From: Escherichia coli
Lineage (GTDB): Bacteria > Pseudomonadota > Gammaproteobacteria > Enterobacterales > Enterobacteriaceae
Assembly (NCBI RefSeq): GCF_030013595.1
Contig: NZ_CP122768.1
Direction: 5' to 3' (one strand)
DNA length: 64,000 nucleotides
Under the pieces are notes generated by a model. The model was not told the DNA's origin. It saw only the letters and a program-made list of their open reading frames with translations, and made no database searches. The position numbers and the translations under genes are program-made. Every line of letters begins with the position of its first letter. The stretch's first letter is position 1. Of this stretch, positions 14,792 through 64,000 are shown one piece after another.

Positions 14792-14795
14792 GTGA

Positions 14796-18904: not shown

Positions 18905-19795
18905 GTGCGATATGACAAAGAATTAATGGAGAATGTGATGATCAGGCAGAAGATTCTACAGCAGCTCCTGGAGTGGATTGAGTGCAATCTCGAGCACCCT
19001 ATTTCAATCGAAGATATCGCACAGAAATCTGGCTACAGCAGACGCAACATCCAGCTTCTTTTCCGAAATTTCATGCATGTGCCTTTGGGAGAATACATTC
19101 GCAAACGAAGGCTTTGTCGTGCCGCCATTCTTGTCCGGCTCACCGCGAAATCTATGCTTGATATTGCACTCTCTTTGCATTTTGATTCACAGCAGTCATT
19201 CAGCCGCGAATTTAAAAAGTTATTCGGCTGCTCTCCCCGTGAATACCGCCACCGTGATTATTGGGATCTCGCAAATATCTTCCCTTCTTTTTTAATACGT
19301 CAACAGCAAAAGACGGAGTGTAAATTAGTCAACTTTCCTGAGACACCTATTTTTGGCGATTCATTTAAATATGACATTGAAGTGTCGAATAAATCACCGG
19401 ATGAAGAAGTCAAACTGCGACGTCATCATTTAGCCAGATGTATGAAGAGTTTTAAGACGGATATCTATTTCGTCTCCACATTCGAACCGTCAACAAAATC
19501 GGTCGATTTGCTCACAGTTGAAACTTTTGCCGGTACGGTATGTAAACAAACCGATTCAGAGATGCCGAAAGAGTGGATAATTAACCGAGGACTGTATGCC
19601 TCTTTCCGCTATGAAGGTGAGTGGGAGCACTACTCTGAATGGGTGCGAAACCTCTATCTGATGGAATTACCTGCCAGGGGGTTAGCCAGAGTGAACGGCA
19701 GTGATATTGAGCGGTTTTATTACAATGAAAACTTCGTCGAAATCGATAGCAATAACATTGTTTGCGAAATTTTTATCCCCGTTCGTCCGGTTTAG
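18905..19795 (+). CDS. ykgA: AraC-family regulator with C-terminal GyrI-like effector domain (YkgA)
   Basis: HTH region ISIEDIAQKSGYSRRNIQLLFRNF...SLHFDSQQSFSREFKKLFGCSPREYR, plus a ~150-aa C-terminal domain. The start may be one of the internal Met codons in the first ~12 residues. Confidence 0.75.
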   Translation: MRYDKELMENVMIRQKILQQLLEWIECNLEHPISIEDIAQKSGYSRRNIQLLFRNFMHVPLGEYIRKRRLCRAAILVRLTAKSMLDIALSLHFDSQQSFSREFKKLFGCSPREYRHRDYWDLANIFPSFLIRQQQKTECKLVNFPETPIFGDSFKYDIEVSNKSPDEEVKLRRHHLARCMKSFKTDIYFVSTFEPSTKSVDLLTVETFAGTVCKQTDSEMPKEWIINRGLYASFRYEGEWEHYSEWVRNLYLMELPARGLARVNGSDIERFYYNENFVEIDSNNIVCEIFIPVRPV

Positions 19796-19915
19796 CTGTA
19801 GCGATGTTTACATGAATTTATAACGAGACTACTGTCAGGCAATTCAATAAATAATGGCGTTGAAGATGTCAACGCCATTATTGTTTATTAGAATGTTACT
19901 TTCATATTCTCAATA

Positions 19916-46832: not shown

Positions 46833-47717
46833 ATGGCGAAAAGGGAGAACTACAACGAGCTGTACCTGTTTATGCAGGTGGTGCGAGAAGGCAGCTTTAC
46901 CGCAGCGGCTCAGCGGCTGGGTCTTGCTCAGTCAGGAGTCAGCCGTTCTGTTCGCGAGCTTGAAGAAAGGCTGGGCGTCCAGCTGCTAGTGCGCACCACG
47001 CGTAAACTGTCGCTGACACAAGCAGGCGAGCAGCTCTACCAGAAGACGGCATCTGGATTTGAAATGTTAGATCTTGGGCTTGCCACGCTGGCGCACTATC
47101 GAGAGACGCCCTCCGGCACGGTGCGTATCAATGCCAGCCAGCACGCGATTGATAAATGCCTGCTGCCAAAGCTGGCGGTATTTAAACAGAGATATCCTGA
47201 TATCCGGCTTGAACTGATAAATGAGAGCCGGTTCGTCGATATCATCGAGGAAAGATTCGATGCAGGTGTCCGCCTGGGGCCTGAAGTCGGCCAGGGTATG
47301 GTCGCGGTACGCATCACGCCCGATATGGAGATGGCAATTGTGGGGACTCCGGAACATTTTCGTCGCTATGGTTTTCCGCAAACCCCGGCGGATTTAAAGG
47401 CGCATCCCTGTATCGCCTATCAGTTTGCCGACGGCAGCGTATACCAGTGGGAACTCAATCAGGATGATAAAAAAATCACTCATCGCCCTGAAGGGCAATG
47501 GGCCCTATCCGACAGCTATATGGAAGCAGAAGCCGCCCGGCTGGGCCTCGGATTGGCCTATGTTCCTGTTGAACTGGTCGCGGATGATTTAGAACACGGT
47601 AAGCTTATCAGGGTGTTGCAGCGTTACAGCCTGCGAATGGAGGGATTGTTTCTCTATTACCCTCATCGCAACGTCTCCCCCGCCCTGCGGATGGTCATTG
47701 ATACATTGAAAATCTGA
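46833..47717 (+). CDS. LysR-family transcriptional regulator
   Basis: 294 aa. HTH FTAAAQRLGLAQSGVSRSVRELEERL. Divergent from the hydrolase/MFS pair. Confidence 0.85.
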   Translation: MAKRENYNELYLFMQVVREGSFTAAAQRLGLAQSGVSRSVRELEERLGVQLLVRTTRKLSLTQAGEQLYQKTASGFEMLDLGLATLAHYRETPSGTVRINASQHAIDKCLLPKLAVFKQRYPDIRLELINESRFVDIIEERFDAGVRLGPEVGQGMVAVRITPDMEMAIVGTPEHFRRYGFPQTPADLKAHPCIAYQFADGSVYQWELNQDDKKITHRPEGQWALSDSYMEAEAARLGLGLAYVPVELVADDLEHGKLIRVLQRYSLRMEGLFLYYPHRNVSPALRMVIDTLKI

Positions 47718-48690: not shown

Positions 48691-48855
48691 TAGCGAGACC
48701 AGTGATTCAAGATGTTCACATCCGTTTCAGCATACAATAAAAAATATATAAAAATCAACAAAATAGACATAAATGCAGTATCAAGATGTTTCGCCTTGTT
48801 TCTGATGATATCATGTTAAATGTGTACCCCACTGTGTACCCAAAAGGCTGAAGAT

Positions 48856-50175
48856 ATGACTTTTACTATTACACAAGACAGACAATTGGCTTCATTGACC
48901 GTTACTAAAGAAGAAAAAGAAATCTTATTTGCTGTAAAATCTAAAGCTGGGGGAGGACTCTTTATACGCGTTCGTTATGGTAGCGACAATAAAAGCTGGA
49001 TTTATCGTTATCGAATAGCTCAAAAGCCAGCTAAATTAACACTAGGTAGTTACCCTGCCATGGGATTAGCTCAAGCTCGTAAAGCTCATGCGGATGCAAT
49101 TGAATTAGTAAGAAAAGGTATAGATCCTCGTCATATTAGAAAAAATGAAAAACAAAAAAATGAACAAATGATTATTTACTCTGAATTATGGAAAGATTGG
49201 ATAGAATTCAGAAAGACAAGTAAACCAATTAGCACCAGACCCCTTGCAGATTATGAAGGGACTTATCACCGCCACCTTGAAAAAGCATTAGGAAACCTTC
49301 GCATTGACGAACTTACCAAAAGCGTTATTTTTGAACATCTCAGTAATGTAAGAAAAACCAGTTCTGAAGCAGTTCGTAAAGGATTAATTATTCTAAATAT
49401 GACTCTTGATCATGCCAACTTACAGGGTATGCTTGAGCATAACCCAGCACGACTGCTCAAACCAGCAATGTTTGGTGCATCGATGAATAAACCTCGCGAG
49501 CGATGGCTTCCTGAGAATGAACTCCGGATGCTATGGAAGGCTTTGGATGATGCTACTGTTGGAGGAGGCTCCATTGCATCTGGTGGCTATGGAATTTCCT
49601 CTAGTGTGGTATTATCTCATTCTGTCGCAAATGCACTCCGTTTGATTATTTTCACAGGAGTGCGCCGCTCTGAAGCGGCACAAATGCGCTGGGATCAAAT
49701 TAATGGAGAGCGTTGGACCATACCAGCCACTAAAAATGGGAAAAGCCATATTGTTACTTTACATCCGTATATGCTTTCTTTAATAAAAACACAACGTGAA
49801 TTCACTGAAGGTGCATATGTTTTTGGTTCTACTAGCAAACCTGGCTTTCCCATCACAAATGACGCTCTGACTCGCGCGTTAGAAAGGGTTCGCTCTAAGT
49901 ATCTAGCCGAACTTACTCCATTTTCTCCTCATGATCTGCGTAGAAGTGTTGCGACTGGATGCGCTGAATACCTTGATGCTCCAGAGCGCCTAATAGAGTT
50001 ACTGTTAAATCATGTACCCAAAGACCGTTTAATACGAACATATCAAGTCGGACAACAAGCTGAAAAATTAAAAAATTTATTTATAGAATGGGGGAATTTT
50101 ATTATGAATAACGTCATTACTGTGCAGCAGAATGCTCCGGATAATGTTATTCATATAAAATTTGGGAACAGATGA
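48856..50175 (+). CDS. intF: Tyrosine integrase (IntF/CP4-6-type), AT-rich
   Basis: 439 aa from MTFTITQDRQLASL. DUF4102-like N-terminus (GGLFIRVRYGSDNKSWIYRYR). C-terminal ..FTGVRRSEAAQMRW.., ..HDLRRSVATG.., ..LLNHV..IRTY. Confidence 0.85.
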   Translation: MTFTITQDRQLASLTVTKEEKEILFAVKSKAGGGLFIRVRYGSDNKSWIYRYRIAQKPAKLTLGSYPAMGLAQARKAHADAIELVRKGIDPRHIRKNEKQKNEQMIIYSELWKDWIEFRKTSKPISTRPLADYEGTYHRHLEKALGNLRIDELTKSVIFEHLSNVRKTSSEAVRKGLIILNMTLDHANLQGMLEHNPARLLKPAMFGASMNKPRERWLPENELRMLWKALDDATVGGGSIASGGYGISSSVVLSHSVANALRLIIFTGVRRSEAAQMRWDQINGERWTIPATKNGKSHIVTLHPYMLSLIKTQREFTEGAYVFGSTSKPGFPITNDALTRALERVRSKYLAELTPFSPHDLRRSVATGCAEYLDAPERLIELLLNHVPKDRLIRTYQVGQQAEKLKNLFIEWGNFIMNNVITVQQNAPDNVIHIKFGNR

Positions 50176-50267
50176 TAAAAATACATGCATGGTCTGAGAT
50201 ACCCTGTCTACTCGACCATGCAGTATGGTTCAACTAAATCAGTCACAACAAGAAATGATTAGTTTTA

Positions 50268-51116
50268 TTAGATATTGTATGGGATTATTTCTGGATAATA
50301 CTTCGCAATGATGTCATTTAGCCGATCAACCAGTTCTGGTTTTCTGAACGTGATATGCGCGGAGCCCTTCTTAAAGTATCTGATGCTGAACATCTCATCT
50401 TCATAGCAGGCTTTGCCCTGAACGGAGCGGATGTGATCATCCAGCCGAATAATGATATTTTCCCGGCTGTCGGGGATCGGTTTGCCGCTGAACAGGTGCA
50501 GCATTCTTTCCAGGTCGGCAAGTCGATCTGCCTGTTGCCCGGTGATAAGATGCAATCCCCACCGGTCCCACCTCACCAGATTGTTGACGATAATTTTACT
50601 GCCAAATTTACAGGGGCAATTGGTTTTGTAATCCCAGCTCAGTCCCCTGAAGACGTTGATGCCCCCACGCTCAAACACTTCATCCTTATTCTGGTGTAGT
50701 TGCTCAAACGTACTCAGTATATTCTCTTCACTGATTTCCGGAAAATTATCGTACTCCAGTGACCGGTACCATGTATCACGGGCCTGTGCATCCATTAAGG
50801 AAAGCATCCCTGAACGTTGCATCAGGTCACGCCAGATTTCACGGTCAAGGTTGCGGGTGATGGCTTTCATTGCCGTTTCAGGTTTCTCCATCAGCCAGCA
50901 ACCGCAGCGAAAATCCTGTTTCATGGCCCAGTCCGGAGCAGTTTTACCTCCAATACTTTCTGTCATTGCTGATATTTCAGCCAGTTGCCGGATAAGTGTG
51001 TCGATTTGCAGCAGTGTGCTCTTTCGTACAGCCAAAATGTGGCGGATACTGGTTGAGCAGATAACGTCCGTATGCCCGTTGACCACTTCCGGACGGGAGA
51101 TTGTGATGTCTGACAT
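50268..51116 (-). CDS. DUF4942-domain protein
   Basis: 282 aa. The position after yeeW/cbtA is typical of CP4-type islands. Family assignment from recollection. Confidence 0.55.
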   Translation of the reverse strand: MSDITISRPEVVNGHTDVICSTSIRHILAVRKSTLLQIDTLIRQLAEISAMTESIGGKTAPDWAMKQDFRCGCWLMEKPETAMKAITRNLDREIWRDLMQRSGMLSLMDAQARDTWYRSLEYDNFPEISEENILSTFEQLHQNKDEVFERGGINVFRGLSWDYKTNCPCKFGSKIIVNNLVRWDRWGLHLITGQQADRLADLERMLHLFSGKPIPDSRENIIIRLDDHIRSVQGKACYEDEMFSIRYFKKGSAHITFRKPELVDRLNDIIAKYYPEIIPYNI

Positions 51117-51200
51117 TATCGGTTTCCCTTTTGGTTTATAAACGAAAACGCCAGCCCTGTTCAGGCTGACGTCAGTGGAATGAAGTATGGTGAGTGATAT

Positions 51201-51623
51201 TTACCGCTTCTGGTGCAGAAGCTGCAGATGACGAAGAGTACGGACATCCTCCCGGGCCTGTTCGATACAGGGCAACAGTGCTACCGAATCCGTTTTATCC
51301 TCATCGTTGTCAAAGATAATTCCCGATTCGCAGTCGATATTGTCCTGCAGCCACGCAATGAGGATATCCAGCGCTGTTTCAGTGGTTAATGGCATCACGC
51401 TCTGTATCACTGTATTGTCTTCCGGCAACTGATGAGGGCTGGCAGAAGTCGCCGGTGTTTCGGTAGCGTCACGTTCATTCACCACGCGGAGTGAATAACC
51501 GTTTTCAGCGACTTTGTTAATCAGTTCAGCGAGCTCAATACCATCGACGTCAACGACAATGCGCCCCATGTTCAGCGCCTGCGCATTAATGCTGTCGGCT
51601 TCCAGCGTCAGGGCCAGTTTCAT
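51201..51623 (-). CDS. yeeW: YeeW-like protein (full length)
   Basis: MKLALTLEADSINAQALNMGRIVVDVDGIELAELINKVAENGYSLRVV.. matches the YeeW N-terminus (recalled). ATGA overlap with the cbtA-like gene. Confidence 0.6.
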   Translation of the reverse strand: MKLALTLEADSINAQALNMGRIVVDVDGIELAELINKVAENGYSLRVVNERDATETPATSASPHQLPEDNTVIQSVMPLTTETALDILIAWLQDNIDCESGIIFDNDEDKTDSVALLPCIEQAREDVRTLRHLQLLHQKR

Positions 51624-51997
51624 TGTTTCGCCCCCGGATGTTTACCCAGGGTAATGTTATTTACCGTTCTGTAGTTGTCGCGTGTCATCAGGCCGGTTGC
51701 CCGGCGTGCCCGGAGGATATCAATACTGTTTATTAACTGAGAACGGGTACAGGCGCTGAATCCCGGCTGGTCGGTACGTACCAGTGCGTATTTTTCAACG
51801 AGAAAGTTCACCGCATCGCACAGTGAAATGCCTGCCTCAATATGCTGCTCAATCACACGTTCATCAGCGAACGGTGTGTCATTCAGCGTAAGGCCGTAGT
51901 GCTGATCCAGCAGTCGGGTGAGCAGTGTCTGCCAGATTTCAACCGGAGACGGGCGTGAACTGGCCGCCTGCCCGGGTAATACAGGTAATGTTTTCAT
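51620..51997 (-). CDS. cbtA: CbtA/YkfI/YpjF-family type IV toxin (cytoskeleton-binding)
   Basis: 125 aa from MKTLPVLPGQAASSRPSPVEIWQTLLTRLLDQHYGLTLNDTPF.. The ORF-track 172-aa form overlaps the antitoxin gene. Confidence 0.85.
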   Translation of the reverse strand: MKTLPVLPGQAASSRPSPVEIWQTLLTRLLDQHYGLTLNDTPFADERVIEQHIEAGISLCDAVNFLVEKYALVRTDQPGFSACTRSQLINSIDILRARRATGLMTRDNYRTVNNITLGKHPGAKQ

Positions 51998-52086
51998 ACT
52001 GAAGATTTTCCTGAAATGCAGAGATGAAAAATGGAAAAGTGGCGTGGTGAAAGCACCAGGCCGGAGCAGAAGGTTATTCTGGAGAG

Positions 52087-52455
52087 TTACTTTTTCGTTT
52101 CGGGCGTCGGATAAACAGCCATATAAACGTAGCCACAACTGCCGAGGGTGTCGGCTTCGCAGGTCAGCCCTTTTGCATACAGCGTGACGGTATGCTGATG
52201 GCGGGGATTCAGTTCACCGCTGGTGAGCATGAGCTCCAGTTGTTTCATCAGCAGCGGAAAGGCCTGGTCTAGGTGGTACGAATCCGCGTCGCTGAACCGC
52301 CCTCTGATACCGGCGCGGTCGGCAAGGTAATGCAACCGGTTGCCTTCCTGTACCAGACGGGCACCAAAACAGGGCGTCACGGTGCAGGGCAGTCCCCACC
52401 AGGTGCGGTCGTTATTGTCGTCGGGAAGCGTTGTCCCGGGGAGTGTGTCTGACAC
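52087..52455 (-). CDS. cbeA: CbeA/YafW/YfjZ-family type IV antitoxin
   Basis: 122 aa. GTG start with GAGGA RBS. MSDTLPGTTLPDDNNDRTWWGLPCTVTPCFGARLVQEGNRLHYLADRAG.. Confidence 0.85.
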   Translation of the reverse strand: MSDTLPGTTLPDDNNDRTWWGLPCTVTPCFGARLVQEGNRLHYLADRAGIRGRFSDADSYHLDQAFPLLMKQLELMLTSGELNPRHQHTVTLYAKGLTCEADTLGSCGYVYMAVYPTPETKK

Positions 52456-52534
52456 GATAAAATCCTCACAGAAAATTGGTTAAGAATGGTCCGGTGGTGG
52501 CGATAATTCTGCTCTTCTGAATGCCCTTCCAGAC

Positions 52535-52756
52535 TCAGTTCAGGGTGACGCTCATCAGCCGGACATACGGACCAAAACTGTCCTTCCGGCGTTCTGCAAA
52601 CACAGCCAGCACACCGGGAATATCCTGTACTTCACGGCCGGTATATGTATCCGTGCTACCGTGCCAGCGGTATTTACCGGTACAGAACGGAAAAAGACGG
52701 GATGCAGGATGCTGACGGTGAATACGCATGGCTTCACCACGGGTGATGATTTTCAT
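52535..52756 (-). CDS. yeeT: DUF987 protein (YeeT/YkfH-like)
   Basis: 73 aa. MKIITRGEAMRIHRQHPASRLFPFCTGKYRWHGS.. Confidence 0.75.
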   Translation of the reverse strand: MKIITRGEAMRIHRQHPASRLFPFCTGKYRWHGSTDTYTGREVQDIPGVLAVFAERRKDSFGPYVRLMSVTLN

Positions 52757-52842
52757 GAGAATAGTCCTCCTGAATGTGAAAGTAAGAAACAGCTGAGAAA
52801 GAGAAACTGAAGTGATATGAAGGTGATTGTGACGGTGACGGG

Positions 52843-53319
52843 TTAAAGCAGACCGTGTTCCGCAAAGGAGAAAACCTGGCTGCCACCGATTATCAGATGG
52901 TCCGGTACCCGGATATCCACCAGGGCCAGTGCCTGTACCAGACGCTCAGTGATAAGGCGGTCTGCCTTGCTGGGGGTGACTTCACCGGACGGGTGATTGT
53001 GCGCCAGCACCACGGCAGCGGCATTGTGGTACAGGGCGCGTTTAATCACCTCCCGGGGATGGACTTCTGTGCGGTTGATGGTGCCAGTGAAGAGGGTTTC
53101 ACCGGCAATCAGCTGATTCTGGTTGTTCAGATACAGCACCCGGAACTCTTCCCGCTCCAGTCCCGCCATGTTCAGTATCAGCCATTCCCGTGCCGCATGC
53201 GTGGAGGTGAAGGCCACGCCGGGTTCATGAAGATGGCGGTCCAGGGTTTTCAGGGCCCGTTGAATGAGGCTGCGCTCGCCGGGCGTCATCTCTCCGGGCA
53301 GAAAGGAAAGCTGTTGCAT
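52843..53319 (-). CDS. yeeS: RadC-like JAB/MPN-domain protein (YeeS/YkfG-like)
   Basis: 158 aa from MQQLSFLPGEMTPGER. JAMM motif VLAHNHPSGEVTPSKADRLIT. Confidence 0.8.
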   Translation of the reverse strand: MQQLSFLPGEMTPGERSLIQRALKTLDRHLHEPGVAFTSTHAAREWLILNMAGLEREEFRVLYLNNQNQLIAGETLFTGTINRTEVHPREVIKRALYHNAAAVVLAHNHPSGEVTPSKADRLITERLVQALALVDIRVPDHLIIGGSQVFSFAEHGLL

Positions 53320-53334
53320 TGTGCTTCTCTCCAT

Positions 53335-53820
53335 TCAGTCGATGATGCGCATAATGGCGCTGCATTCCGGATGCTGCAGGGCGTAATCCCGCAGCCGGTA
53401 ATAATGGACCGTCATGGCATAACACTCCGTACGACAGGCATGATGACTGTACGTCATCAGACAGGCAGCAATGCCGGCGGCTTCCGGGCTCATTTCAGCG
53501 CGGTTGCCGTTCATGACATTGAACAGTACCCATATTTCGTCATCATCGTCATCCGGTTCGGGTGCCATAAATGCCCCGCCGTTGTTCAGAGTGTACAGAT
53601 TCCAGATACCACCGCAGTAGTCTTCGCTCAGACGGTCCATCCAGCCGAAAACACGGGGCTCCAGGGTCACCCACTGTGGAATGAGACCAAAGTGCTGCGG
53701 CCAGAAGCTGATGCGCTGTTCATCAGGGACTATGGTGGCAACCAGCTGAGGCTGGTCATTCCCTGATGCAGCGGTTACGGAAACAGAAGGAGTGGTGGAA
53801 TTATGCGAGACGGTTGTCAT
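53335..53820 (-). CDS. Antirestriction-family protein (YafX/YfjX-like, KlcA/ArdB-type)
   Basis: 161 aa. ..ISFWPQHFGLIPQWVTLEPRVFGWMDRLSEDYCGGIWNLYTLNNGGAFMAP.. Confidence 0.7.
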   Translation of the reverse strand: MTTVSHNSTTPSVSVTAASGNDQPQLVATIVPDEQRISFWPQHFGLIPQWVTLEPRVFGWMDRLSEDYCGGIWNLYTLNNGGAFMAPEPDDDDDEIWVLFNVMNGNRAEMSPEAAGIAACLMTYSHHACRTECYAMTVHYYRLRDYALQHPECSAIMRIID

Positions 53821-53911
53821 GAGATTATTCCTTATAAAAAGTAAATGAATGGAAGAAACCCCGGGGGAAGGGACAAACGTGAGTCAGAACTGCGCTTTCA
53901 GGGAAAAGGCA

Positions 53912-54730
53912 TCAGCACATGCTCTCCAGCAGCGTTTCAGCCATTACCCACAATGCGCGATTGAGCTTAATGTCGGTGTCGATGCTGTGAATGGCACGGG
54001 TATGGATACGTTTCCCTCTGGCACTGCGACCGGAAATTCCGCCTTTCAGCATATTCTCCTGAATGGTCTGATAAGCACTCCACAGGTCCTTACCGTAATC
54101 CTCCCGGCGTCGTGGTGTCAGAATGTCGGCGGTGGTGACGGGCTGATGTTCGTCACCATAACGGTAAGTCAGTGCCGCCTGTGCCAGCGCCTGGCGTGCC
54201 GGTGGCGGCAGAATCAGCGACTGCATGGCATCACGCTTTTCCTCAATCCGCTCAAACACGCCCACCACCTCGTAAGCCCCTTCAATAACTTTCTCCACCA
54301 CATTTCCCCGGTGTGGAACACGCAATTCTCCCAGAGACTGACCGCAGACCAGTCCATTGGTACAAATGGCACGAAAATATCCGGGTAACATCTGGTAGCT
54401 GGATGAACCGTCATGGGAGTTGAGCAGAATAATTTCAGGGACATGCTGACCGGTTATCTGCCCGGCCCGCCGCAGACGCAGCATGTGTTTTGTGTATTCC
54501 CGGCGGCTCTGGTCGCGCACGCGGGTCTGGCAGGCAAAGAACGGCTGAAAGCCTTCCTGCTGCAGATTTTCCAGGACGGTGATAGTGGGAATGTACGCAT
54601 AGTGTTCACTTCGGGAGGTATGTCGGTTTTCCCCAAAAATACTCGGTACATGGCGCATCAGTTCTTCGTGTGTCAGCGGACGGTCACGGCGTATCTGGTT
54701 TACATGACCAAAACGACTCGCTAATCGCAT
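53912..54730 (-). CDS. DUF932 protein (YafZ-like)
   Basis: 272 aa. MRLASRFGHVNQIRRDRPLTHEELMRHVPSIFGE.. Confidence 0.7.
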   Translation of the reverse strand: MRLASRFGHVNQIRRDRPLTHEELMRHVPSIFGENRHTSRSEHYAYIPTITVLENLQQEGFQPFFACQTRVRDQSRREYTKHMLRLRRAGQITGQHVPEIILLNSHDGSSSYQMLPGYFRAICTNGLVCGQSLGELRVPHRGNVVEKVIEGAYEVVGVFERIEEKRDAMQSLILPPPARQALAQAALTYRYGDEHQPVTTADILTPRRREDYGKDLWSAYQTIQENMLKGGISGRSARGKRIHTRAIHSIDTDIKLNRALWVMAETLLESMC

Positions 54731-54769
54731 TATTTGCTCCTTATGAATGAGTTAGCGGTATAAATGAAT

Positions 54770-55472
54770 AAATATCCTCCGGCATAGCCGGAGGTTTTTC
54801 AAATGCGCCTGTAAGGCTCTGTTACCAGCCGCGCCCTAACAGGCGCATACGATCTGACATTTGCATTCAACTTCGTTACTTACGGCCCGTAAACGGGCTG
54901 CCCGGATATGGAATCGATAACTGCTCCCCCATTTTATCCTCTTCAAGCTGGTGCTTTATGTAGTCCTGTATCTTCGCCGTGTTCTTACCCACCGTATCGA
55001 CATAGTACCCTCGGCACCAGAACTCCCTGTTTCTGTATTTGAATTTCAAATCCCCAAACTGCTCGTAAAGCATCAGACTGCTTTTCCCTTTCAGATATCC
55101 CATAAAGCCGGATACGCTCATTTTGGGTGGGATTTCCACAAGCATATGGATATGATCTGCGCAGCACTCTGCTTCCAGAATCCGTACGCTTTTCCACTCA
55201 CACAGCTTTCTCAAAATACTGCCTATCGCCCTACGCTTCTCTCCGTAAAACGCCAGTCTTCGGTATTTCGGCGCAAAAACTATGTGATATTTACAGTTCC
55301 AGCGGGTGTGCGCTAAGCTCTTTTCGTCCCCCATTGGGACCCCCTTTTGATTTCTTGTTTGACACTTGCAGTTGCCAGACCGCAAGGTGTTTTAACAAAT
55401 CAAAAGGGGTTTTAATAACTGGCTCAAAGCTGAAAGCTTTCCGGAACCCCCAGCCTAGCTGGGGGTTTTCTG
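54770..55472 (-). mobile_element. IS200 (IS200/IS605 family); boundaries approximate
   Basis: Contains tnpA. The upstream end has the hairpin ACCCCCAGCCTAGCTGGGGGT (55446-55466). The downstream end has the inverted repeat ATGCGCCTGT..ACAGGCGCAT (~54813-54860). Size is about 0.7 kb as expected. Confidence 0.7.
54876..55334 (-). CDS. tnpA: IS200 Y1 (HUH) transposase TnpA
   Basis: 152 aa from MGDEKSLAHTRWNCKYHIVFAPKYRR. HUH motif CCADHIHMLV. Confidence 0.92.
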   Translation of the reverse strand: MGDEKSLAHTRWNCKYHIVFAPKYRRLAFYGEKRRAIGSILRKLCEWKSVRILEAECCADHIHMLVEIPPKMSVSGFMGYLKGKSSLMLYEQFGDLKFKYRNREFWCRGYYVDTVGKNTAKIQDYIKHQLEEDKMGEQLSIPYPGSPFTGRK

Positions 55473-55477
55473 TGCAC

Positions 55478-55508
55478 AAAAAGCCGCGTCTCCCGGAGAA
55501 GACGCGGC
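55478..55508 (-). terminator. Intrinsic terminator after the DUF905 gene
   Basis: GCCGCGTCT (55483-55491) pairs with AGACGCGGC (55500-55508). On the minus strand it is followed by TTTTT. Confidence 0.7.
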
Positions 55509-55530
55509 CTGATGGGTGAAATGAAGACGT

Positions 55531-55764
55531 TTATTGCCTGAGAATTCCCTCACTGGCGAGATACGGATTTAGCTGTTTTCCGGCATCAGGTTCAAAATTC
55601 CAGTACCGCCAGCGCAACTGACCTTCAGCATTACGGATAACCAGCCGGAAATGCGTTCCCTGGTCATCTTCAATAAGCACATTGCGGTAAGCTGTTGTGA
55701 CGGCAACCGCCTGTTCGCGTGAGAAAGGGCCTTCGGGTAATAAACGTGATGTACAACCCGGCAT
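55531..55764 (-). CDS. DUF905 protein (YkfF/YfjR-neighbour type)
   Basis: 77 aa from [52 protein letters not shown].. AGGGAG RBS. Confidence 0.7.
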
Positions 55765-55834
55765 ATCTGTTGCTCCCTGAAAGTAAAAGGCCCCGGTCAT
55801 GATGACCGGGGCCTGAAGGGGAGTGACCTGATTA

Positions 55835-58681
55835 TCAGAAAGTCACATTCAGCGTGGCCTGACCGTTATAACCTTCAGCGCTGCTGCCGCTGACGCTGTG
55901 GGCATAACCGGCCTGAACGCCCAGGGTGATATTTTCCCGGACACGGGCTTCCAGTCCGGCCTGCAGGTCCAGTGACGTGCCATTCTGGGATGGTGAGAAC
56001 GTCATGTTACTGCCGGCTGCGGCTGTACCCATGCTCATGTCACCCCGGGAGCTGAAGGTGCGGATAACAGAAGGCTGTACCCACCAGTTCACCGGCAGTT
56101 CACGCACACTGTGTTTTGCACTGTCGCGCAGGGTGTCACGGGATGAGGTGCCTTCACCAAAGGTCATATCGTTGTGGCTGCCCAGACGGAAACCGGCACG
56201 CACATGTTGTGCACTGCCATGCCCGAACTTCACATAACCGGCGTTATCCTGGCCGTCATCCAGGGAAAGTCCCTGCCAGGTATACTGCAGTTGTGGCTCC
56301 AGCATCAGGTTGTCAGTGATACTGAAGGGCAGACCGGTTTCCAGTGAGCCCAGCCAGCCCCAGCCCCGGGCGCGGAAGTCGTTATTGTCCGATGACGCTT
56401 TCATGCTGTGGCGGGTTCCCTGTGCCACAATGTCAGCCCACAGGCCGGAGGACGTGTGTGTCAGATTCAGGTATCCGCCCAGGCTGCCGGCATCATCCCG
56501 GACCGTGCCGGCACGGGAGCCGTCATCATCCTTAACATCAACGGAAGAATGGCCTGCAGCGCCATATACCCCCGTGGTCACAGACATACCGGCAACCTCT
56601 GTTCTCAGCAGGTCACCCTCCAGACGGACGAAGCCATAGCTGCCGCTGCTTTCCGGCGTGGCCCCACGGGCAATACCGCCGTTGTTATCGTGACCGAGAT
56701 GACCGCCCTGAATGCTGAGACGGACGCTGTTATTTTCACCGTTTACACCGGTCTGATGGCTGCGGGAGCCTGCCAGAATCCGGTCATAGTCCATTGCCTG
56801 TGTCAGCATGGAGGCATACAGGGGGACTTCAGCACGATAAGCATTTTCACTGCGCAGGTACCAGTCTTCATCGCTGTCACGGTTCAGGGTGTAGTTAAAG
56901 ACACCGGCCTGAAGCGGGCGACTCAGGGCAAACGCACCTTCTTCTGTGGTGGCACCATTCTGTGCATCCACAACCCGGATACCCTGTCCGGAGGTTGCCA
57001 CCCCGAGGTTACTGTTTCCGACATTTGTGAACGCAAGCCAGGTTTTGCCGGTTGCCTGACCACCATTAATCACCAGCTGGTCAGGGGCATTGCTGCCATC
57101 AAGGCGAACACGCATATTGATGGTGCCACCCTGACCGGTGAGGTTACTGGTGGTCAGTTTATGGAACGTTACCGGGGCGTCGCCTTTTGCAACAGCACGG
57201 CTCAGGACGGCATCCTGTGTCGTCTGATTATCAAAGCGAATCTCCCCTGCGTTAACAATATCGCCGGTACTGACCACATCACCATTCAGTACCATGCTGG
57301 CGCCTTTACTGAGCTGTGTTCTGCCACTCAGACTTCCCCCGGCAGCCAGCATCAGTGTCCCACGATGTCCGACAGTGGTGTTGCTGGCCTGTCCCCCGGC
57401 ATTAACCGTAAAGCTACCGCCATTTTCCAGCAGCAGGCCGCTGGCCTGACCGGATATACCATCAATACTGAACTTACCGCTGGCATTGGTCCCCTCAACA
57501 GTGGCACCACTGTCTGCAATCAGGGCACCACCGGATGTCATGGTGACACCTGTTGCCTTACCACCGGCAGACACTGCCAGGGTACCGCCGTCATCCACCC
57601 GTGTTTTCTGCGCTGAATGGCCCTCCAGTACATCCAGGCGACCGCCGGACTCCAGAACAAGGCCGTCAGCCTTACCGTTTTCCACCGTGAAATTGCCCAG
57701 ACGGTTGCTGCCGGTGACGGTTGCCGCCGTACTGGTGACCAGTGCGCCCCCCTGCTTCAGGGTGACATTCGTGGCTGTACCACCGGCGTTCACCTGCAGC
57801 TTGCCTTTCTGGTTAACGGTGGTGAAATCCGCCAGACCACCTTCCTTGATAATCTGCCAGCCGTCACTGTTTACAACAGTGCCAGACGCCGTACCGCCGT
57901 TGTGCACATACTGGTACCCCCCATTCAGCGTGGTATCCAGTGCGTGACCATGTACAGTCTGGTCGCCGCCGGCATAAACCACAGTGGTATTTACCGTTCC
58001 TTCAGCAGCCACAATCTGACGACCATTTTTATTGATGGTGGTGCGTACGGCATCTCCGTAGACGGTCTGCCCGGTATCACCATTTTCTGCATCCGGTCCC
58101 CCTTCCGCGCCGGTATTCACAACCGTGTCGGTTGCCACTGCGCCGGATTTGACGGCCTGCCAGCCCTTCTCATTAATGACAGTACCCGTTGCAATCCCGC
58201 CTTCATGTACCCACTGCTCACCGCCGTTCAGAGTGGTGTTCACTGCCTGCCCCTGAAGGCTCTGTCCGCCTCCGGCACTGATAACCGTGTCTGAAACGCT
58301 TCCTCCGGCATTCACTCTCTGAAGACCACCACCGGTGACAGTAGTGTTGTTGGCGATACCGCCATTTTGTATCCATTGTCCGCCGGTATTGGCCTCGTTA
58401 TCCGGCCCATACTCCAGACCGGTACTGATGGTCATTCCGTTGGCCGTACCGAAGACAATCTGGTTGTCATGATTTTCCAGTGTTCCGCCGCTCACGGTTT
58501 CTCCCGTCTGTACAACCGTGTCAGCAGCCAGTGCCGGGACTGATGTGACAGCAGCAAGAGACAGCGCAACCGCCACACCGGCGCGTTTTCCCCGTGAGCG
58601 GGCCAGTTCGGAGGTCACCACCAGGGTGCCCGTAATGTGATTCCATACCAGCCTGTAGCTGGTGTTCAGATGTCGTTTCAT
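55835..58681 (-). CDS. flu: Antigen 43-family self-associating autotransporter adhesin
   Basis: 948 aa from [35 protein letters not shown] (extended signal peptide). Repetitive beta-helix passenger (..GG.A..T.V..GG.Q.V..). C-terminal beta-barrel ending ..GQATLNVTF. Confidence 0.9.
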
Positions 58682-58898
58682 CAGCTTTTCCTTACAGAGG
58701 GTGAATAAAAAAGCCGGTACCCACAAATATGGGTACCGGCAGGTACAAAACAGCATGGTCAGATAAAGTGGTTTTTCCCGGACATAAATGCTTCTCCTCT
58801 CTCATCCGCCAGAGAAGTATCAGTCCGTTGTGTGCAATTCCGTTCTGCATGATGAAGAGATTCAGCTGCCTTTTCGCAGACCATTAACCACTATAAAC

Positions 58899-58934
58899 GA
58901 TCGATGGTAACGATCGATACATGTTTTATCGATC
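58899..58934. promoter_or_regulatory. Three clustered GATC sites: the Dam/OxyR phase-variation switch of agn43
   Basis: GATC at 58899, 58912 and 58931, each within CGATCG, about 220-250 nt upstream of the flu start, as in K-12 agn43 (recalled). Confidence 0.7.
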
Positions 58935-59052
58935 GTTTTATTCTATTAACAGCAAGGCAGTCACGCAAGAGAAAGAGGTGGGTATGAGGTGTTTGTGTCA
59001 TGTTTTCAGTTGGTTAACGCAATGTAATCAGGCATTTCCCCTGGCAGAGTGT

Positions 59053-59925
59053 TCAGAAGAAAATCCAGTTCCATACAGCGCGGGCAACAGAGACCACCGT
59101 GTCACGGACGACACGCAGAACCGTACGAGCCACAGAGGCAATACAGACGCTCTCCGCCGTGTCAAATATCCGGTCCACCGCACCGGTAAACTGTTCACGG
59201 GCCTGCCCCCGGACAGATTCCGTGCACAACTCGTCCTGCAGGCGGGTCATCAGGGGACTGGCGGCATGGTCGGGAAGTGCTGTCATGAGCGCACTGACCA
59301 GCGTATCCAGTTCCCAGCCGGTGCGGGCCGATACGGCCACAACCGGATGTACGGGCCGGAACAGCCGGAATACCGCATCTGTTTTCTCACGAATGTTCTG
59401 TTCCTGTGCGGGAGAAGGCTGAATACCTGCCATATCCCATTCATGGCAGGGCTCCGTTTTGTCGGCCTGCGTCACCACAAACAGCACCTGCTGATGTCCC
59501 CGGTGCAGGATGTGTCGCCAGAAATACTCATCCACAGACAGGGCACGGTCATCGGCTTTAATCAGCCACAGTACCAGGTCAAGTTCAGGCAGAATGTCAC
59601 GGTACAGGGCTTCATACTCTGCATCCCTGTCCCGGCTCTCGCCCACCCCGGGTAGGTCAGTGATAACCATGCTGTGACCATGGCCACTCAGACGGAAGCG
59701 CTGCGCTTCCCGGGTGCCGGCGTGAACATCACTGACCGGGGTGACCTCCCCCTGAAACAGTGCATTACAGAGTGAGGATTTACCGGCCCCGCTTTTCCCC
59801 ATAATGCCAATCACGGGTTCGTGGCTGGTGAGTTTGCGCAGATGTTCCAGGATGTGACGGGAAAGTGAGTAAGGAAGAGAAGAAAGTGGTTTTTCAATTG
59901 CCTCAATGGCATCAGACGGATTCAT
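59053..59925 (-). CDS. yeeP: YeeP/YkfA-like GTPase (50S ribosome-binding GTPase family)
   Basis: 290 aa from MNPSDAIEAIEKPL. P-loop GIMGKSGAGKSSL, then DLPGVGE. Confidence 0.8.
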   Translation of the reverse strand: MNPSDAIEAIEKPLSSLPYSLSRHILEHLRKLTSHEPVIGIMGKSGAGKSSLCNALFQGEVTPVSDVHAGTREAQRFRLSGHGHSMVITDLPGVGESRDRDAEYEALYRDILPELDLVLWLIKADDRALSVDEYFWRHILHRGHQQVLFVVTQADKTEPCHEWDMAGIQPSPAQEQNIREKTDAVFRLFRPVHPVVAVSARTGWELDTLVSALMTALPDHAASPLMTRLQDELCTESVRGQAREQFTGAVDRIFDTAESVCIASVARTVLRVVRDTVVSVARAVWNWIFF

Positions 59926-60255
59926 ACATGTATTCCCGGTGAAAAAAGACAAAACCCCGCGCACCGGAAAGGTGGCGGGGGATTCACGGAGATAATATCT
60001 GTCTGAAATTATTTAGGATGCAGGTATCTTCAGATAATCGCACCCCCAGAATTTTATTCTTAATAGTTGAATAGTGGTATTTGGTTTCCCTGAGAGAATA
60101 TAAAGATGAATCATGCTGTATTGAGTTTGATTCTATTTGTACTGAGACAGGTATCTTCATGATTATAATCAAAAGCCGGGTGGATTGGTCTGGCGCTAAT
60201 TATTTTCTCGAATAAACTCACTAATTATTGTAACCATCCCAAAGGAGATGATTTT

Positions 60256-62400
60256 ATGTATAATTGTGGTGAATCATATTCAGAATACGACATATCATTA
60301 TCTGACGATGAAAACTATAACGATGACTATTATCGTGAGCGCCCGTGCCCGGGAGAAGTTTTCGGCTATGATAATGATGTACCACGGTTTAGTAAGATTG
60401 CACGGTCTTATTTGCTCCACGTGGGTAGCCTTGACTGGACCAAGATAAATCCGGATATCTTTGGCTCCATGATTCAGGCAATTGCCGAAGATGAAGAGCG
60501 CGGAGAGCTGGGTATGCATTACACCAGCGTACCCAACATCTTAAAAGTTTTGAATCCACTATTTCTTGACGACCTGCGTGCACAGCTGGACGAGGCTGGT
60601 GACAATCCACGTATGTTGCTGAACCTGCGCAAACGCATTTCCCACATTCGTGTGTTCGACCCAGCGTGCGGTTCTGGGAACTTTTTGGTTATCGCGTATA
60701 AGGAAATGCGTGCCATTGAGGCCGAAATCAACAAGAGGCGCAGTGAGCCGGATCGTGCCTCGGATATTCCACTTACCAACTTTCGCGGGATTGAACTACG
60801 AGATTTCCCGGCAGAAATCGCCCGCCTTGCGCTTGTTATCGCTGAGTACCAATGTGATGTGCTGTACCGTGGGCTGCGGCTGGCCTTGGCTGAGCTTCTT
60901 CCTTTACGCAACGAAAATTGGATTACTTGTGGCAATGCACTGCGGCTCGACTGGTTAAGAATTTGTCCGCCAACGGGAACCAGTGTGAAATTACATGGTG
61001 ACGACTTGTTTGGATCACCGCTTGATCAGGCAGAGATTGACTTTGAAAATGAAGGAGGAGAGACATATATTTGTGGAAATCCTCCATACAAGGGTAGCCA
61101 AACCCAAACTGATGACCAAAAAAATGATCTAAAAGCCATATTCGAGAAACGCACAACTAATTGGAAGTCATTGGATTATGTTGCAGGTTGGTTTATGAAG
61201 GCTGTCGACTACGGTAGTCAAACTAACTCGTCTGCTGCGTTCGTCTCAACTAATTCCATTTGTCAAGGTAGACAGGTCGAAACCCTTTGGTCGTTGATTT
61301 TTGCAGCCAAGCATGAAATATCCTTTGCTTATACGTCCTTCAAATGGGCAAATCTTGCTAGCCACAATGCGGGAGTGAGTGTCATTGTTGTGGGAATTTC
61401 TAATCATGTTAAGGGCCCCCGGAAAATATTTTCCACAACTGAGGATTTGGGGACCATCATAAAAGAAGTAGACAACATCAATGCGTATCTTGTCGCGGGT
61501 AAAAGCACAATTGTTGCACAGCGAAGTTTTCCTTTATCCGAAGTAAGTGTAATGGATTTTGGTTCAATGGCGAACGATGGTGGTGGCCTTCTTTTTGACA
61601 GTTCAGAATCAAGTCGTGCAGTTAATGATTATGGTGCTGATATTTGTTATTTTCGAAAGGCTTGGGGAGCTAAGGAGTTTATTTCTGGAACTCCTAGAGC
61701 TTGCCTGTGGTTAAATAAAGACAGTGCTAAAAAAGCAATTCTGAACTCTTGGATTTCAGACCGAATTGAGATCACACGTAAGGCCAGAGCAAATAGTCCT
61801 CGGGCAGCGACAAAAAAACTAGCAGATATTGCTTACAGATTTGGTGAAGTGAGGCAAGACGGCAGCGAGCGAATCATTATTGTTCCCAGTGTCAGTTCTG
61901 AACGTAGGGAGTATCTTCCATGTGGTTATCTCGATGTTGGTTCAATCGTTATCGCTCCGAATCTTGCTTTCTATGATTCCCCGCTTTGGAATATGGCGCT
62001 TATTGCTTCTAGGTTGCATTTGGTATGGGTGGCGACAGTCTGCGGGCGTATCAAAACTGACTATCGCTACTCTAATACCCTTGGCTGGAATACTTTCCCT
62101 GTCCCACCACTCACTGAGAAAAACAAGGCCGACCTTACGCGTTGCGCAGAGGATATCCTACTGGCGCGGGAACACCACTTCCCTGCGACTATTGCGGATT
62201 TGTATGATCCCGCGAACATGCCCCCTGACCTGCGTGCTGCCCATGAACGAAACGACGAAGTGCTGGAACGCATCTATATAGGGCGACGATTCAAGAACGA
62301 CACTGAGCGGCTGGAAAAGTTGTTCGACCTCTACACGAAAATGATTGCTTCGACTGCACCGGTCAAAGGTAAGAAGCGCAAAGCAGGAAATAACGAATGA
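60256..62400 (+). CDS. MmeI/PglX/YeeA-family gamma-class N6-adenine DNA methyltransferase (apparently lacking the usual N-terminal domain)
   Basis: 714 aa. INPDIFGSMIQ..GMHYTS helical-spacer motif, motif I VFDPACGSGNFLV, motif IV CGNPPYKG, and a long C-terminal TRD-like region. Confidence 0.8.
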   Translation: MYNCGESYSEYDISLSDDENYNDDYYRERPCPGEVFGYDNDVPRFSKIARSYLLHVGSLDWTKINPDIFGSMIQAIAEDEERGELGMHYTSVPNILKVLNPLFLDDLRAQLDEAGDNPRMLLNLRKRISHIRVFDPACGSGNFLVIAYKEMRAIEAEINKRRSEPDRASDIPLTNFRGIELRDFPAEIARLALVIAEYQCDVLYRGLRLALAELLPLRNENWITCGNALRLDWLRICPPTGTSVKLHGDDLFGSPLDQAEIDFENEGGETYICGNPPYKGSQTQTDDQKNDLKAIFEKRTTNWKSLDYVAGWFMKAVDYGSQTNSSAAFVSTNSICQGRQVETLWSLIFAAKHEISFAYTSFKWANLASHNAGVSVIVVGISNHVKGPRKIFSTTEDLGTIIKEVDNINAYLVAGKSTIVAQRSFPLSEVSVMDFGSMANDGGGLLFDSSESSRAVNDYGADICYFRKAWGAKEFISGTPRACLWLNKDSAKKAILNSWISDRIEITRKARANSPRAATKKLADIAYRFGEVRQDGSERIIIVPSVSSERREYLPCGYLDVGSIVIAPNLAFYDSPLWNMALIASRLHLVWVATVCGRIKTDYRYSNTLGWNTFPVPPLTEKNKADLTRCAEDILLAREHHFPATIADLYDPANMPPDLRAAHERNDEVLERIYIGRRFKNDTERLEKLFDLYTKMIASTAPVKGKKRKAGNNE

Positions 62401-64000
62401 ACAATAAAATCAAGAATGTACCTTCCGTTTCCGTTACTTATGCACGTAATGGCGCATCAACCAAAGCTAATGTGCTTGGGATGCGTCCTATGCAGGAGAG
62501 AGCTTATGAAAAGCGCGGCGAGCAGTACTTGCTTATCAAATCACCACCGGCATCAGGTAAAAGCCGCGCACTGATGTTCATAGCACTCGACAAACTCGAA
62601 AACCAAGGGATTAAACAGGCAATCATCGTTGTGCCGGAAAAATCTATCGGCGCGAGTTTCAACGATGAACCGCTATCGCAGTTTGGATTCTGGGCTGATT
62701 GGCATGTCGAACCTAAGTGGAACCTATGCAACGCGCCCGGTAACGACAACGGGGGCAAGGTAAGATCTTTTGGCTCTTTTCTTGAAAGTAGCGACAAGGT
62801 GCTTGTTTGCACACACGCAACCTTTCGCTTCGCGGTCGATGCCTATGGCGTAGAAGCGTTTGACGATCGCCTGATCGCCGTCGATGAATTCCACCATGTG
62901 TCAGCTAACCCGGATAACAAGCTTGGTCAGCATCTGGGGCAGTTCATCGCGCGTGATAAGACACACATCGTTGCCATGACCGGCTCCTACTTCCGTGGTG
63001 ATGCGGAGGCCGTTTTGGCTCCTCAGGATGAGTCCAGGTTCGATACCGTCACCTATACCTACTACGAACAACTCAACGGTTACGAATACCTCAAGCAACT
63101 CGATATCGGCTACTTCTTTTACAGTGGCTCCTACGTCGATGACATCCTTAATGTCCTCGATCCTGACAAAAAGACCATTATCCATATACCCAACGTCAAT
63201 TCGCGCGAGAGCACGAAGGATAAAATCAAGGAAGTGGAGCATATTCTTAGCGAGCTTGGCGATTGGCAAGGTGCGGATCCTGCGACTGGTTTCCAGCTAG
63301 TCAAATGCCTCGATGGCCGAATGTTGCGTATAGCTGATCTGGTGGACCCAACTAGTCAAGGCAAGATTCAGGAAAGCCTTCGTGCTGCAGAAATGAAGAC
63401 AGACCGTGACTATGTAGACATCATTATTGCACTTGGTATGGCGAAGGAAGGTTTTGACTGGATTTGGTGCGAACATGCGCTGACCGTTGGCTACCGTGCC
63501 AGCCTGACTGAGATCGTGCAGATTATCGGTCGCGCTACTCGCGACGCGCCGGGTAAAAACCGCGCAAGGTTTACTAACCTGATCGCCGAGCCGGATGCTG
63601 TTGAGGGGGCTGTCACCGAGGCAGTCAACGATACCTTGAAAGCCATCGCGGCAAGCCTGCTGATGGAGCAAGTATTAGCTCCGCGCTTCGAGTTCAAGCC
63701 TAAGAACCCAGAAAGTGGTCCGGCCCCAGGCTTTGATTATGGTGATGGTGGATATGACCCGGATAGCTGTAATTTTGGTGTTAATGAGCAGACAGGGACG
63801 TATCAAATCGAGATTAAGGGACTTGCCGAGCCCAGGAGCAAAGAGGCGGCACGCATCTGCCAGGAAGATTTAAACGAAGTGATCGCGGCCTTTGTGCAGG
63901 ATAAGCCCGCCATCGAACGAGGCCTGTTCGATGAAGAGCTGATTCCTGAAGAGTTAACTCAGGTTCGTATGGGTAAGATCATCAAAGAAAAGTATCCTGA
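62397..64000 (+). CDS. SF2 (ResIII/DEAD-like) helicase-ATPase, partial (open at window end)
   Basis: The ATG at 62397 overlaps the methyltransferase TGA (ATGA). Read by hand, with no stop through 64000 (>534 codons). Motif I KSPPASGKS, motif II VDEFHHV, motif VI QIIGRATR. Absent from the ORF track because it has no stop. Confidence 0.8.
   Translation, partial: MNNKIKNVPSVSVTYARNGASTKANVLGMRPMQERAYEKRGEQYLLIKSPPASGKSRALMFIALDKLENQGIKQAIIVVPEKSIGASFNDEPLSQFGFWADWHVEPKWNLCNAPGNDNGGKVRSFGSFLESSDKVLVCTHATFRFAVDAYGVEAFDDRLIAVDEFHHVSANPDNKLGQHLGQFIARDKTHIVAMTGSYFRGDAEAVLAPQDESRFDTVTYTYYEQLNGYEYLKQLDIGYFFYSGSYVDDILNVLDPDKKTIIHIPNVNSRESTKDKIKEVEHILSELGDWQGADPATGFQLVKCLDGRMLRIADLVDPTSQGKIQESLRAAEMKTDRDYVDIIIALGMAKEGFDWIWCEHALTVGYRASLTEIVQIIGRATRDAPGKNRARFTNLIAEPDAVEGAVTEAVNDTLKAIAASLLMEQVLAPRFEFKPKNPESGPAPGFDYGDGGYDPDSCNFGVNEQTGTYQIEIKGLAEPRSKEAARICQEDLNEVIAAFVQDKPAIERGLFDEELIPEELTQVRMGKIIKEKYP

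Follow-up and report, generated by a model that had tools for sequence, protein, structure and literature searches.

A 5′-truncated, chimeric YeeA/DnmA-type methylase gene in a YeeA-YeeB-YeeC-type operon of Escherichia coli

The methylase and helicase genes

At the end of a stretch of 64,000 nucleotides from Escherichia coli (contig NZ_CP122768.1; this whole stretch is called the window in the following), a gene coding for a DNA methyltransferase (methylase) is directly followed by a helicase gene, which runs past the last position. The locus is a new, 5′-truncated E. coli member of the known, mechanistically unresolved DnmA/YeeA-YeeB-YeeC family and does not represent a new kind of system. 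The following features were assigned to the two genes:

60256..62400, + strand, chimeric MmeI-family N6-adenine methyltransferase/target-recognition domain (TRD) subunit of the YeeA/DnmA type, without the N-terminal domain and most of the helical spacer
60586..61431, + strand, MmeI_Mtase domain (Pfam), containing motifs I and IV, with motif X slightly upstream
61498..62112, + strand, MmeI_TRD (Pfam), target-recognition domain
62116..62346, + strand, MmeI_C (Pfam), C-terminal helical bundle
62397..64000, + strand, YeeB-type superfamily 2 (SF2) DExH ATPase/helicase, codons 1-534 of 681, running past the end of the window

The methyltransferase open reading frame (ORF; 60256-62400, + strand) encodes a product of 714 amino acids (aa), in which the motifs follow each other in the order of the gamma class, with motif X (HYTS, 60517-60528), motif I (DPACGSGNFL, 60658-60687) and motif IV (NPPY, 61078-61089). 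Pfam profiles identified the domains MmeI_Mtase (5.8e-116), MmeI_TRD (3.1e-73) and MmeI_C (3.9e-18). Motifs and domains thus agree with a preliminary description of this DNA, in which the protein was taken for a gamma-class N6-adenine methyltransferase of the MmeI family with a fused TRD. The affinity to PglX which was suggested there was not found, as the NCBIfam PglX models reach 20-28 bits at cut-offs of 400-900.

The methylase stop codon overlaps the helicase start codon (ATGA, 62397-62400), and the frame beginning at 62397 stays open for 534 codons up to position 64000. It contains motif I (KSPPASGKS, 62538-62564), motif II (VDEFHHV, 62880-62900), the sequence MTGSY and motif VI (QIIGRATR, 63519-63542), so that the proposed SF2 ATPase, translationally coupled to the methylase, was confirmed. 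The Pfam matches to DEAD and ResIII are both weak. In strain H8 (locus L001) and in a draft contig (L003), the helicase has its full length of 681 aa. Sequence and profile searches of the PDB gave nothing useful for this protein, with DHX58 as the best match (E = 0.007 over 60 residues), and no relatives were found among the solved Type I, III or ISP enzymes, the profile search of the PDB included. A nuclease domain was detected by Pfam and PADLOC profiles neither in the 714-aa product nor in the 534-codon part of the helicase, as had been noted before.

The complete operon

The genes downstream of the window were read by megablast against complete E. coli genomes, from the annotation of strain H8 and from contig L003, which is nearly identical to the window. 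The operon, which had been described as incomplete at the window edge, indeed continues with a third gene, coding for a GIY-YIG nuclease. In H8 it encodes a 928-aa "class I SAM-dependent DNA methyltransferase" (SAM, S-adenosylmethionine), the 681-aa DEAD/DEAH helicase and a 392-aa GIY-YIG nuclease-family protein. The nuclease gene starts about 0.44 kb beyond position 64000 (gene coordinates of L003) and overlaps the helicase stop codon in both L001 and L003, so that each gene of the operon is joined to the next by a stop/start overlap (ATGA between methylase and helicase, ATGAATAA between helicase and nuclease).

The 392-aa protein contains the domains T5orf172 and MUG113. Over the range from E. 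coli to Ligilactobacillus, there is no variation in its GIY-YIG motifs (G-x-[IV]-Y-V-L, K-[IV]-G-x-T, E-x-R-I and P-x-E-W-F). Sequence and profile searches of the PDB gave nothing useful for the nuclease either. AlphaFold2 models of the helicase and the nuclease, for which the input alignments consisted of homologs with at least 80% identity, were too poor for use, with a mean predicted local distance difference test score (pLDDT) of 44.6 and 51.0, respectively. In all contigs with the 714-aa product, the helicase (681 aa) and the GIY-YIG protein (392 aa) are intact and identical to the H8 proteins.

Origin of the 714-aa methylase

The 714-aa ORF is an in-frame deletion chimera and not a native gene. 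Window positions 59000-60375 are 100% identical to positions 11001-12376 of the H8 locus (L001), and window positions 60372-64000 are 100% identical to positions 14668-18296 of the same locus. Compared to H8, 2,295 bp are missing, comprising the 3′ end of a small ORF, remnants of the insertion sequence (IS) IS66 and the methylase codons 1-253. The junction and the region which now heads the gene have the following features:

60372..60375, deletion junction with TAAT microhomology, a 4-bp overlap of both flanks, from the comparison with strain H8
60256..60372, + strand, fusion codons 1-39, from an unrelated 60-aa hypothetical ORF, by flank identity to L001
60241..60258, + strand, Shine-Dalgarno sequence AAGGAG and ATG of the small ORF (WP_000282126-type), now serving the fusion, CAAAGGAGATGATTTTATG
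60142..60169, + strand, sigma-70-like promoter match CTGAGA-16-TATAAT

From residue 40 onward, the chimera corresponds to residue 254 onward of the 928-aa full-length methylase. The small ORF, which provides the fusion with its Shine-Dalgarno sequence and its start codon, encodes an acidic protein of 60 aa without a Pfam match (WP_000282126; L001 12257-12439, annotated in H8). Matches to the sequence of this junction region are present in about 855 complete E. coli genomes. The promoter match is the sole one upstream of the chimeric ORF, at 1 match seen vs. 1.8 expected by chance; it might belong to the small ORF, the 5′ part of which is now the beginning of the methylase gene.

In the 928-aa protein, Pfam recognizes MmeI_N (1-159) and MmeI_hel (170-250), which are both deleted in the window, followed by the Mtase, TRD and C domains. 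Likewise, of the 912 positions of the PADLOC Type IIG model, the window protein covers 260-910 and the full-length protein 7-910. In MmeI, the nuclease domain spans residues 1-155, the helical spacer 156-300 and the methyltransferase (MTase) domain 301-620 (PMC4833311). The alignable part of the window protein begins near MmeI residue 266, which means that roughly the last third of the spacer, about 35 residues, is kept. This truncation was overlooked in the preliminary description: measured against the ancestral 928-aa protein, the first 253 residues are gone.

The junction sequence is present in none of the 5,426 complete E. coli genomes, which could point to an assembly artefact. This explanation is hardly credible, since the exact 714-aa fusion occurs in several independent NCBI assemblies, among them a contig of 3.4 Mb (L003) that is 99.985% identical to window positions 50256-64000, and since the junction is a clean 4-bp microhomology. 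In total, the exact product was found on about 17-19 draft contigs (about 19 by exact-protein look-up, 17 in the NCBI listing). Judged by these assemblies, the allele is real yet rare and recent. As the flanks are 100% identical to H8, the deletion must be recent, and the persistence of the allele is hardly informative on its function. The "714-aa methyltransferase" is deposited in NCBI, and its entry there should carry a note that the protein is a fusion or truncation.

Assignment to the DnmA/YeeA-YeeB-YeeC family

According to Morgan et al. (2009), MmeI homologs form two groups. The members of group one are the Type IIL enzymes, which carry the PD-ExK residues D70/E80/K82 and have no conserved neighbours. 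Those of group two lack the PD-ExK motif, differ in the first ~100 residues and are "invariably" found beside a DEAD-family helicase (YeeB-like) and a GIY-YIG protein (YeeC-like) (PMC2731913). The operon described here shows these features of group two: its ancestral methylase resembles MmeI over most of the sequence and has no PD-ExK motif, the gene of a DEAD-like SF2 helicase is located directly downstream with an ATGA overlap, and a GIY-YIG (T5orf172) gene follows the helicase outside the window.

The ancestral 928-aa protein matches MmeI (PDB 5HR4) with E = 4e-132. The similarity begins only at residue 88 and reaches to the C-terminus, residues 1-87 are not alignable to MmeI by phmmer, and the N-terminal 160 aa alone gave only chance matches against the PDB (phmmer). 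Four helicase-linked proteins (E. coli, Pseudomonas aeruginosa, Ligilactobacillus, Vibrio parahaemolyticus) were aligned with two standalone plasmid homologs (Deinococcus, Staphylococcus). A D-X9-ExK arrangement is present in the standalone homologs (IDLLWPGLFMAEHK and ...IEQK), and none of the four helicase-linked proteins has a conserved acidic/lysine triad at the PD-ExK position. In Deinococcus radiophilus, a gene encoding a TIR domain overlaps the stop codon of a standalone, PD-ExK-bearing MmeI-family gene (L017 7511-7960).

The likeness to the Bacillus subtilis YeeA/YeeB pair, which had been noted in the preliminary description, is correct, as the third gene is a YeeC-type GIY-YIG gene and the trio is the same as in PMC2731913. 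The statement that the locus cannot be assigned to a characterised system holds for the mechanism, which is unsolved for the whole family, but not for the type, which can be assigned as DnmA/YeeA-YeeB-YeeC.

That the locus is instead a variant of BREX, DISARM, Hma or a classical Type I, III or ISP system is very improbable. Short matches at the level of motifs to PglX, to the DrmMI models and to ResIII speak for such a variant. Past the nuclease gene, however, contig L003 contains only IS fragments and primase-like genes, and no PglZ, BrxC, DrmA/B/C, HsdS or Mod was found downstream. For BREX, the PglX scores given above are far below the cut-offs and the PglZ/BrxC neighbours are missing. For DISARM, the DrmMI model matches only partially (74 bits over the TRD and C region) and no Drm genes are present in L003; neither system, each of which had been named beforehand as a possible refutation, was found by PADLOC and NCBIfam profiles or among the downstream genes. 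The suggested affinity to Hma was not confirmed, since none of the three proteins matches a Hma model of PADLOC-DB v2 and the third gene encodes a GIY-YIG nuclease instead of an ATPase. A Type ISP enzyme would be one polypeptide and not three separate ORFs, and the helicase profile found no Type ISP chain in the PDB. Type I is contradicted by the TRD fused to the methylase, by weak matches to the MTase_I model and by the lack of HsdS/HsdR in L001 and L003. For Type III, there is no Mod downstream and the helicase has no sequence relative among the solved enzymes. Finally, the MmeI family proper (Type IIL) was rejected because the triad D70/E80/K82 is missing and the partner genes are conserved.

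Distribution and conservation

Relatives of the helicase were found in at least 578 species-representative genomes by a pattern scan with one genome per species. Two homolog searches gave at least 8,000 clusters each, and an exhaustive HMMER search gave 476 representatives at 50% clustering (E <= 1e-30). The best 80 of the at least 578 scan relatives, to which the counts and medians below refer, are 73-91% identical to the E. coli helicase and originate from Alpha-, Beta-, Gamma- and Deltaproteobacteria, Acidobacteriota, Bacillota, Cyanobacteria, Nitrospira and Verrucomicrobiota; the B. subtilis yeeABC locus is not among these 80. A YeeB-like relative of 1181 aa (P0294) is an unusual fusion, with a region of BspA-type leucine-rich repeats at its C-terminus. 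Within E. coli the operon is present in 99 of the 5,426 complete genomes (about 1.8%), and the helicase is also abundant in Salmonella, Klebsiella, Enterobacter and Cronobacter.

Of the 65 assessable loci, 62 have a full-length methylase gene directly upstream of the helicase gene, and 74 of 75 have a GIY-YIG gene downstream of it. Plasmids of Ligilactobacillus and Vibrio and an element in P. aeruginosa carry the genes in this order as well. One cyanobacterial locus (L092 5001-11369) has the order helicase, GIY-YIG, methylase. Over their full length, the E. coli proteins and those of the Ligilactobacillus plasmid are 45% (helicase), 30% (nuclease) and 38% (methylase) identical. The median identities to E. 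coli, computed over the 80 loci, are:

Methylase N-terminal domain, 75%
Methylase helical spacer, 70%
Methylase linker, 87%
Methylase MTase domain, 70%
Methylase TRD, 42.5%
Methylase C-terminal bundle, 88%
Helicase, 79.5%
Nuclease, 58-68%

The TRD is the sole hypervariable segment of the module (42.5% vs. 70-88% for the other methylase segments). Between pairs of E. coli alleles, the TRDs are 44-47% identical and the helicases and nucleases 96-97%. This diversification of the TRD alone would fit selection for new specificities. In two E. coli loci with other TRD alleles (L099 and L100, 7612-8409), the operon is followed by a gene with a BRO-N domain and an inovirus Gp2-family gene, without an Ag43/YeeP island.

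Proposed mechanism and state of the chimeric allele

We infer that the intact module would act as a Type I-like or split Type-ISP-like restriction-modification (R-M) system. The methylase/TRD subunit would read an asymmetric site and methylate one adenine on one strand of the host DNA. At an unmodified site, it would recruit or license the SF2 ATPase for DNA translocation and the GIY-YIG subunit for cleavage, with its nuclease-less N-terminal domain taking the place of the MmeI cleavage domain as contact to these partners. In such a scheme restriction would be methylase-dependent, since the methylase would license both ATPase and nuclease. A Type I-like coupling was offered as a speculation for the YeeABC group by Morgan et al. 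(2009; PMC2731913).

Several published phenotypes bear on this scheme. In B. subtilis, DnmA (YeeA) is required for N6-methyladenine (m6A) at the non-palindromic site GACGAG and suffices to produce it, and the deletion of dnmA causes no growth defect (PMC7261158). In Vibrio crassostreae, the inactivation of yeeAB leads to the loss of resistance to one phage group (bioRxiv 10.1101/2021.05.05.442762). A published name or mechanism for the system newer than the DnmA-era papers was not found in the literature on the RefSeq accessions, on MmeI-like/helicase anti-phage systems and on DnmA.

The methylase was lost independently next to intact helicase and nuclease genes in the window lineage, by the deletion, and in E. 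coli DSM 103246, by an ISKpn26 insertion (L002 16062-17042). In a Herbaspirillum locus (L013 5526-5957) it is reduced to a 143-aa remnant of TRD and C domain, and it is interrupted by insertions in two metagenome-assembled genomes (L080, L088), again with intact helicase and GIY-YIG genes. This suggests that methylase loss is tolerated, and the repeated disruption of the methylase beside intact partners fits methylase-dependent restriction.

In the chimeric allele, the catalytic core, the TRD and the C-terminal bundle are, to judge from the sequence, intact, as are the genes for helicase and nuclease. Since these methylase parts are kept and M.TaqI, likewise a methylase of the gamma class, needs neither an N-terminal domain nor a spacer for its activity (PMC4833311), the truncated protein may retain methylation. 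The coupling to restriction is probably lost, because the domain proposed to provide it is deleted, so that the locus is most likely restriction-impaired (restriction-minus, r-minus) and possibly modification-plus (m-plus). Taken together, we assign a probability of about 0.72 to the reading that the window contains the first two genes of a DnmA/YeeA-YeeB-YeeC-type three-gene module, with a chimeric methylase, which is restriction-impaired and possibly m-plus.

Some points weigh against it. In B. subtilis, phage sensitivity and transformation are unchanged upon deletion of yeeB or yeeC (PMC9973331, PMC7261158). Complex formation, translocation and cleavage by the three proteins are a proposal for every member of the family, and it is speculative that the N-terminal domain serves for docking. 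Within the methylase, conservation is highest in the linker (87%) and the C-terminal bundle (88%); both are kept in the window, and either could be the true interface. Among unusually long helicase relatives, no helicase-nuclease or helicase-methylase fusions were found that would support a complex. Finally, folding, expression and methylation of the truncated protein are predictions, and its spacer appears to be reduced to about 35 residues.

From the conservation of the linker and the C-terminal bundle it could be argued that the truncated methylase still works with helicase and nuclease, that the defence is fully active and that the N-terminal domain is dispensable or regulatory. The in-frame fusion with its good Shine-Dalgarno sequence, partner proteins identical to those of intact loci and the persistence of the allele on 17-19 contigs agree with this. 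Such an active locus is nevertheless unlikely: a median identity of 75% and presence in 62 of 65 loci show selection on the N-terminal domain, the allele occurs in 0 of 5,426 complete genomes, and the 100% identical flanks mark the deletion as recent. Similarly improbable is the opposite explanation, in which the whole locus is an inert relic that would not restrict even with a full-length methylase, the latter being at most an orphan or epigenetic enzyme. The lack of a restriction or anti-phage phenotype of dnmA-yeeB-yeeC in B. subtilis (PMC9973331, PMC7261158), the position of the E. coli locus amid IS debris and the recurrent methylase disruptions would be expected of a relic, but identities of 73-91% across phyla, strict synteny and invariant catalytic motifs would not; neither would the TRD-specific diversification, expected under selection for new specificities, nor the loss of phage resistance in the Vibrio yeeAB knockout (bioRxiv 10.1101/2021.05.05.442762).

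Starting from the restriction-impaired, possibly m-plus reading, a further-reaching idea can be put forward tentatively, although we consider it somewhat more likely wrong than right: the YeeABC type might form a distinct class of ATP-dependent R-M systems, a "split Type ISP" with a GIY-YIG nuclease, of which the E. coli allele would be a natural separation-of-function mutant. If so, the chimeric allele would keep methylation and lose restriction, and the nuclease-less N-terminal domain would be the docking or licensing module for helicase and nuclease. A comparison of the chimeric with the otherwise identical full-length H8 operon would then be a direct test of the coupling speculated by Morgan et al. 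(2009).

The family is very common, yet it has no solved structure and no biochemical mechanism, and its two tested members, from B. subtilis and Vibrio, show opposite phenotypes. NCBIfam contains no family model for methylase, helicase or nuclease, and PADLOC none for the helicase, apart from a weak PbeA match, or the nuclease. A natural N-terminal truncation beside intact partners could be of use for probing the role of the nuclease-less N-terminal domain.

Genomic island context

The operon is flanked by genes of a CP4-type E. coli island, namely an integrase (48820-50175), DUF4942, CbtA/CbeA, RadC, an antirestriction gene, DUF932, an IS200 transposase, Ag43 and a YeeP-like GTPase. The described context of an island with anti-restriction and toxin-antitoxin genes is thus real, on the basis of the integrase, the CbtA/CbeA pair, the antirestriction gene, Ag43 and the GTPase. 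Its association with a tRNA gene could not be confirmed within the window, as ARAGORN found no tRNA or transfer-messenger RNA (tmRNA) gene in the 64 kb. At the left end of the island, the integrase gene has a LysR-family gene (46833-47717) and paoD-like genes as neighbours. The IS200-type Y1 transposase gene (54876-55385, - strand) is flanked by the DUF932 and DUF905 genes both in the window and in L003, and it is missing at this position in H8 (L001) and DSM 103246 (L002). Beyond the operon and the IS fragments, contig L003 carries an AEP-type primase gene (AEP-TOTE/DNA_primase_S; AEP, archaeo-eukaryotic primase) and a DUF3987 gene (18404-22145), which suggests a second mobile element abutting the island.

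Comparison with known systems

The closest likeness by description and gene order is to DnmA(YeeA)-YeeB-YeeC of B. subtilis. Both loci encode, in this order, an MmeI homolog that lacks PD-ExK, an SF2 helicase of the DEAD-like kind and a protein with T5orf172/GIY-YIG domain. In both, the methylase is of the gamma class with a fused TRD, and the genes lie in a horizontally acquired island with toxin-antitoxin genes. A difference is that the window methylase is 5′-truncated and chimeric. The nearest trio from Bacillota that was compared is the one from Ligilactobacillus, with the identities given above. The yeeAB genes of V. crassostreae are the same named methylase-helicase pair and the sole member with a demonstrated anti-phage phenotype, which differs in being restricted to some phage clades (bioRxiv 10.1101/2021.05.05.442762). 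As a proxy, the ortholog on a V. parahaemolyticus plasmid was compared, with identities of 37% (methylase) and 46% (helicase).

MmeI (Type IIL; PDB 5HR4; PMC4833311) shares the order of spacer, MTase, TRD and C-terminal bundle, and modification of a single strand is expected in both cases. In contrast to MmeI, the ancestral E. coli protein lacks the D70/E80/K82 site and depends on separate helicase and nuclease genes, and the window copy is in addition without the N-terminal domain and most of the spacer. The Type ISP enzymes LlaGI and LlaBIII (PMC3553950) unite the same functions, which are a nuclease, an SF2 ATPase, a gamma-class adenine methylase and a TRD, and cleavage coupled to translocation is plausible there as well as for the YeeABC type. 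However, LlaGI/LlaBIII are each one polypeptide with an Mrr (PD-ExK) nuclease, whereas the E. coli locus encodes three polypeptides with a GIY-YIG nuclease, and there is no detectable sequence similarity between these enzymes and the E. coli helicase.

Finally, Type I R-M systems of the EcoKI and EcoR124I type also keep the modification apart from the motor and nuclease subunits. Restriction is expected to need the methylase/specificity subunit in both, and the exchange of TRDs diversifies the specificity. Unlike in Type I systems, no HsdS is present, as the TRD is fused to the methylase, and the nuclease is a separate GIY-YIG protein instead of a domain of HsdR. With its single TRD, the E. 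coli locus is expected to recognize an asymmetric site and to produce hemimethylated DNA.

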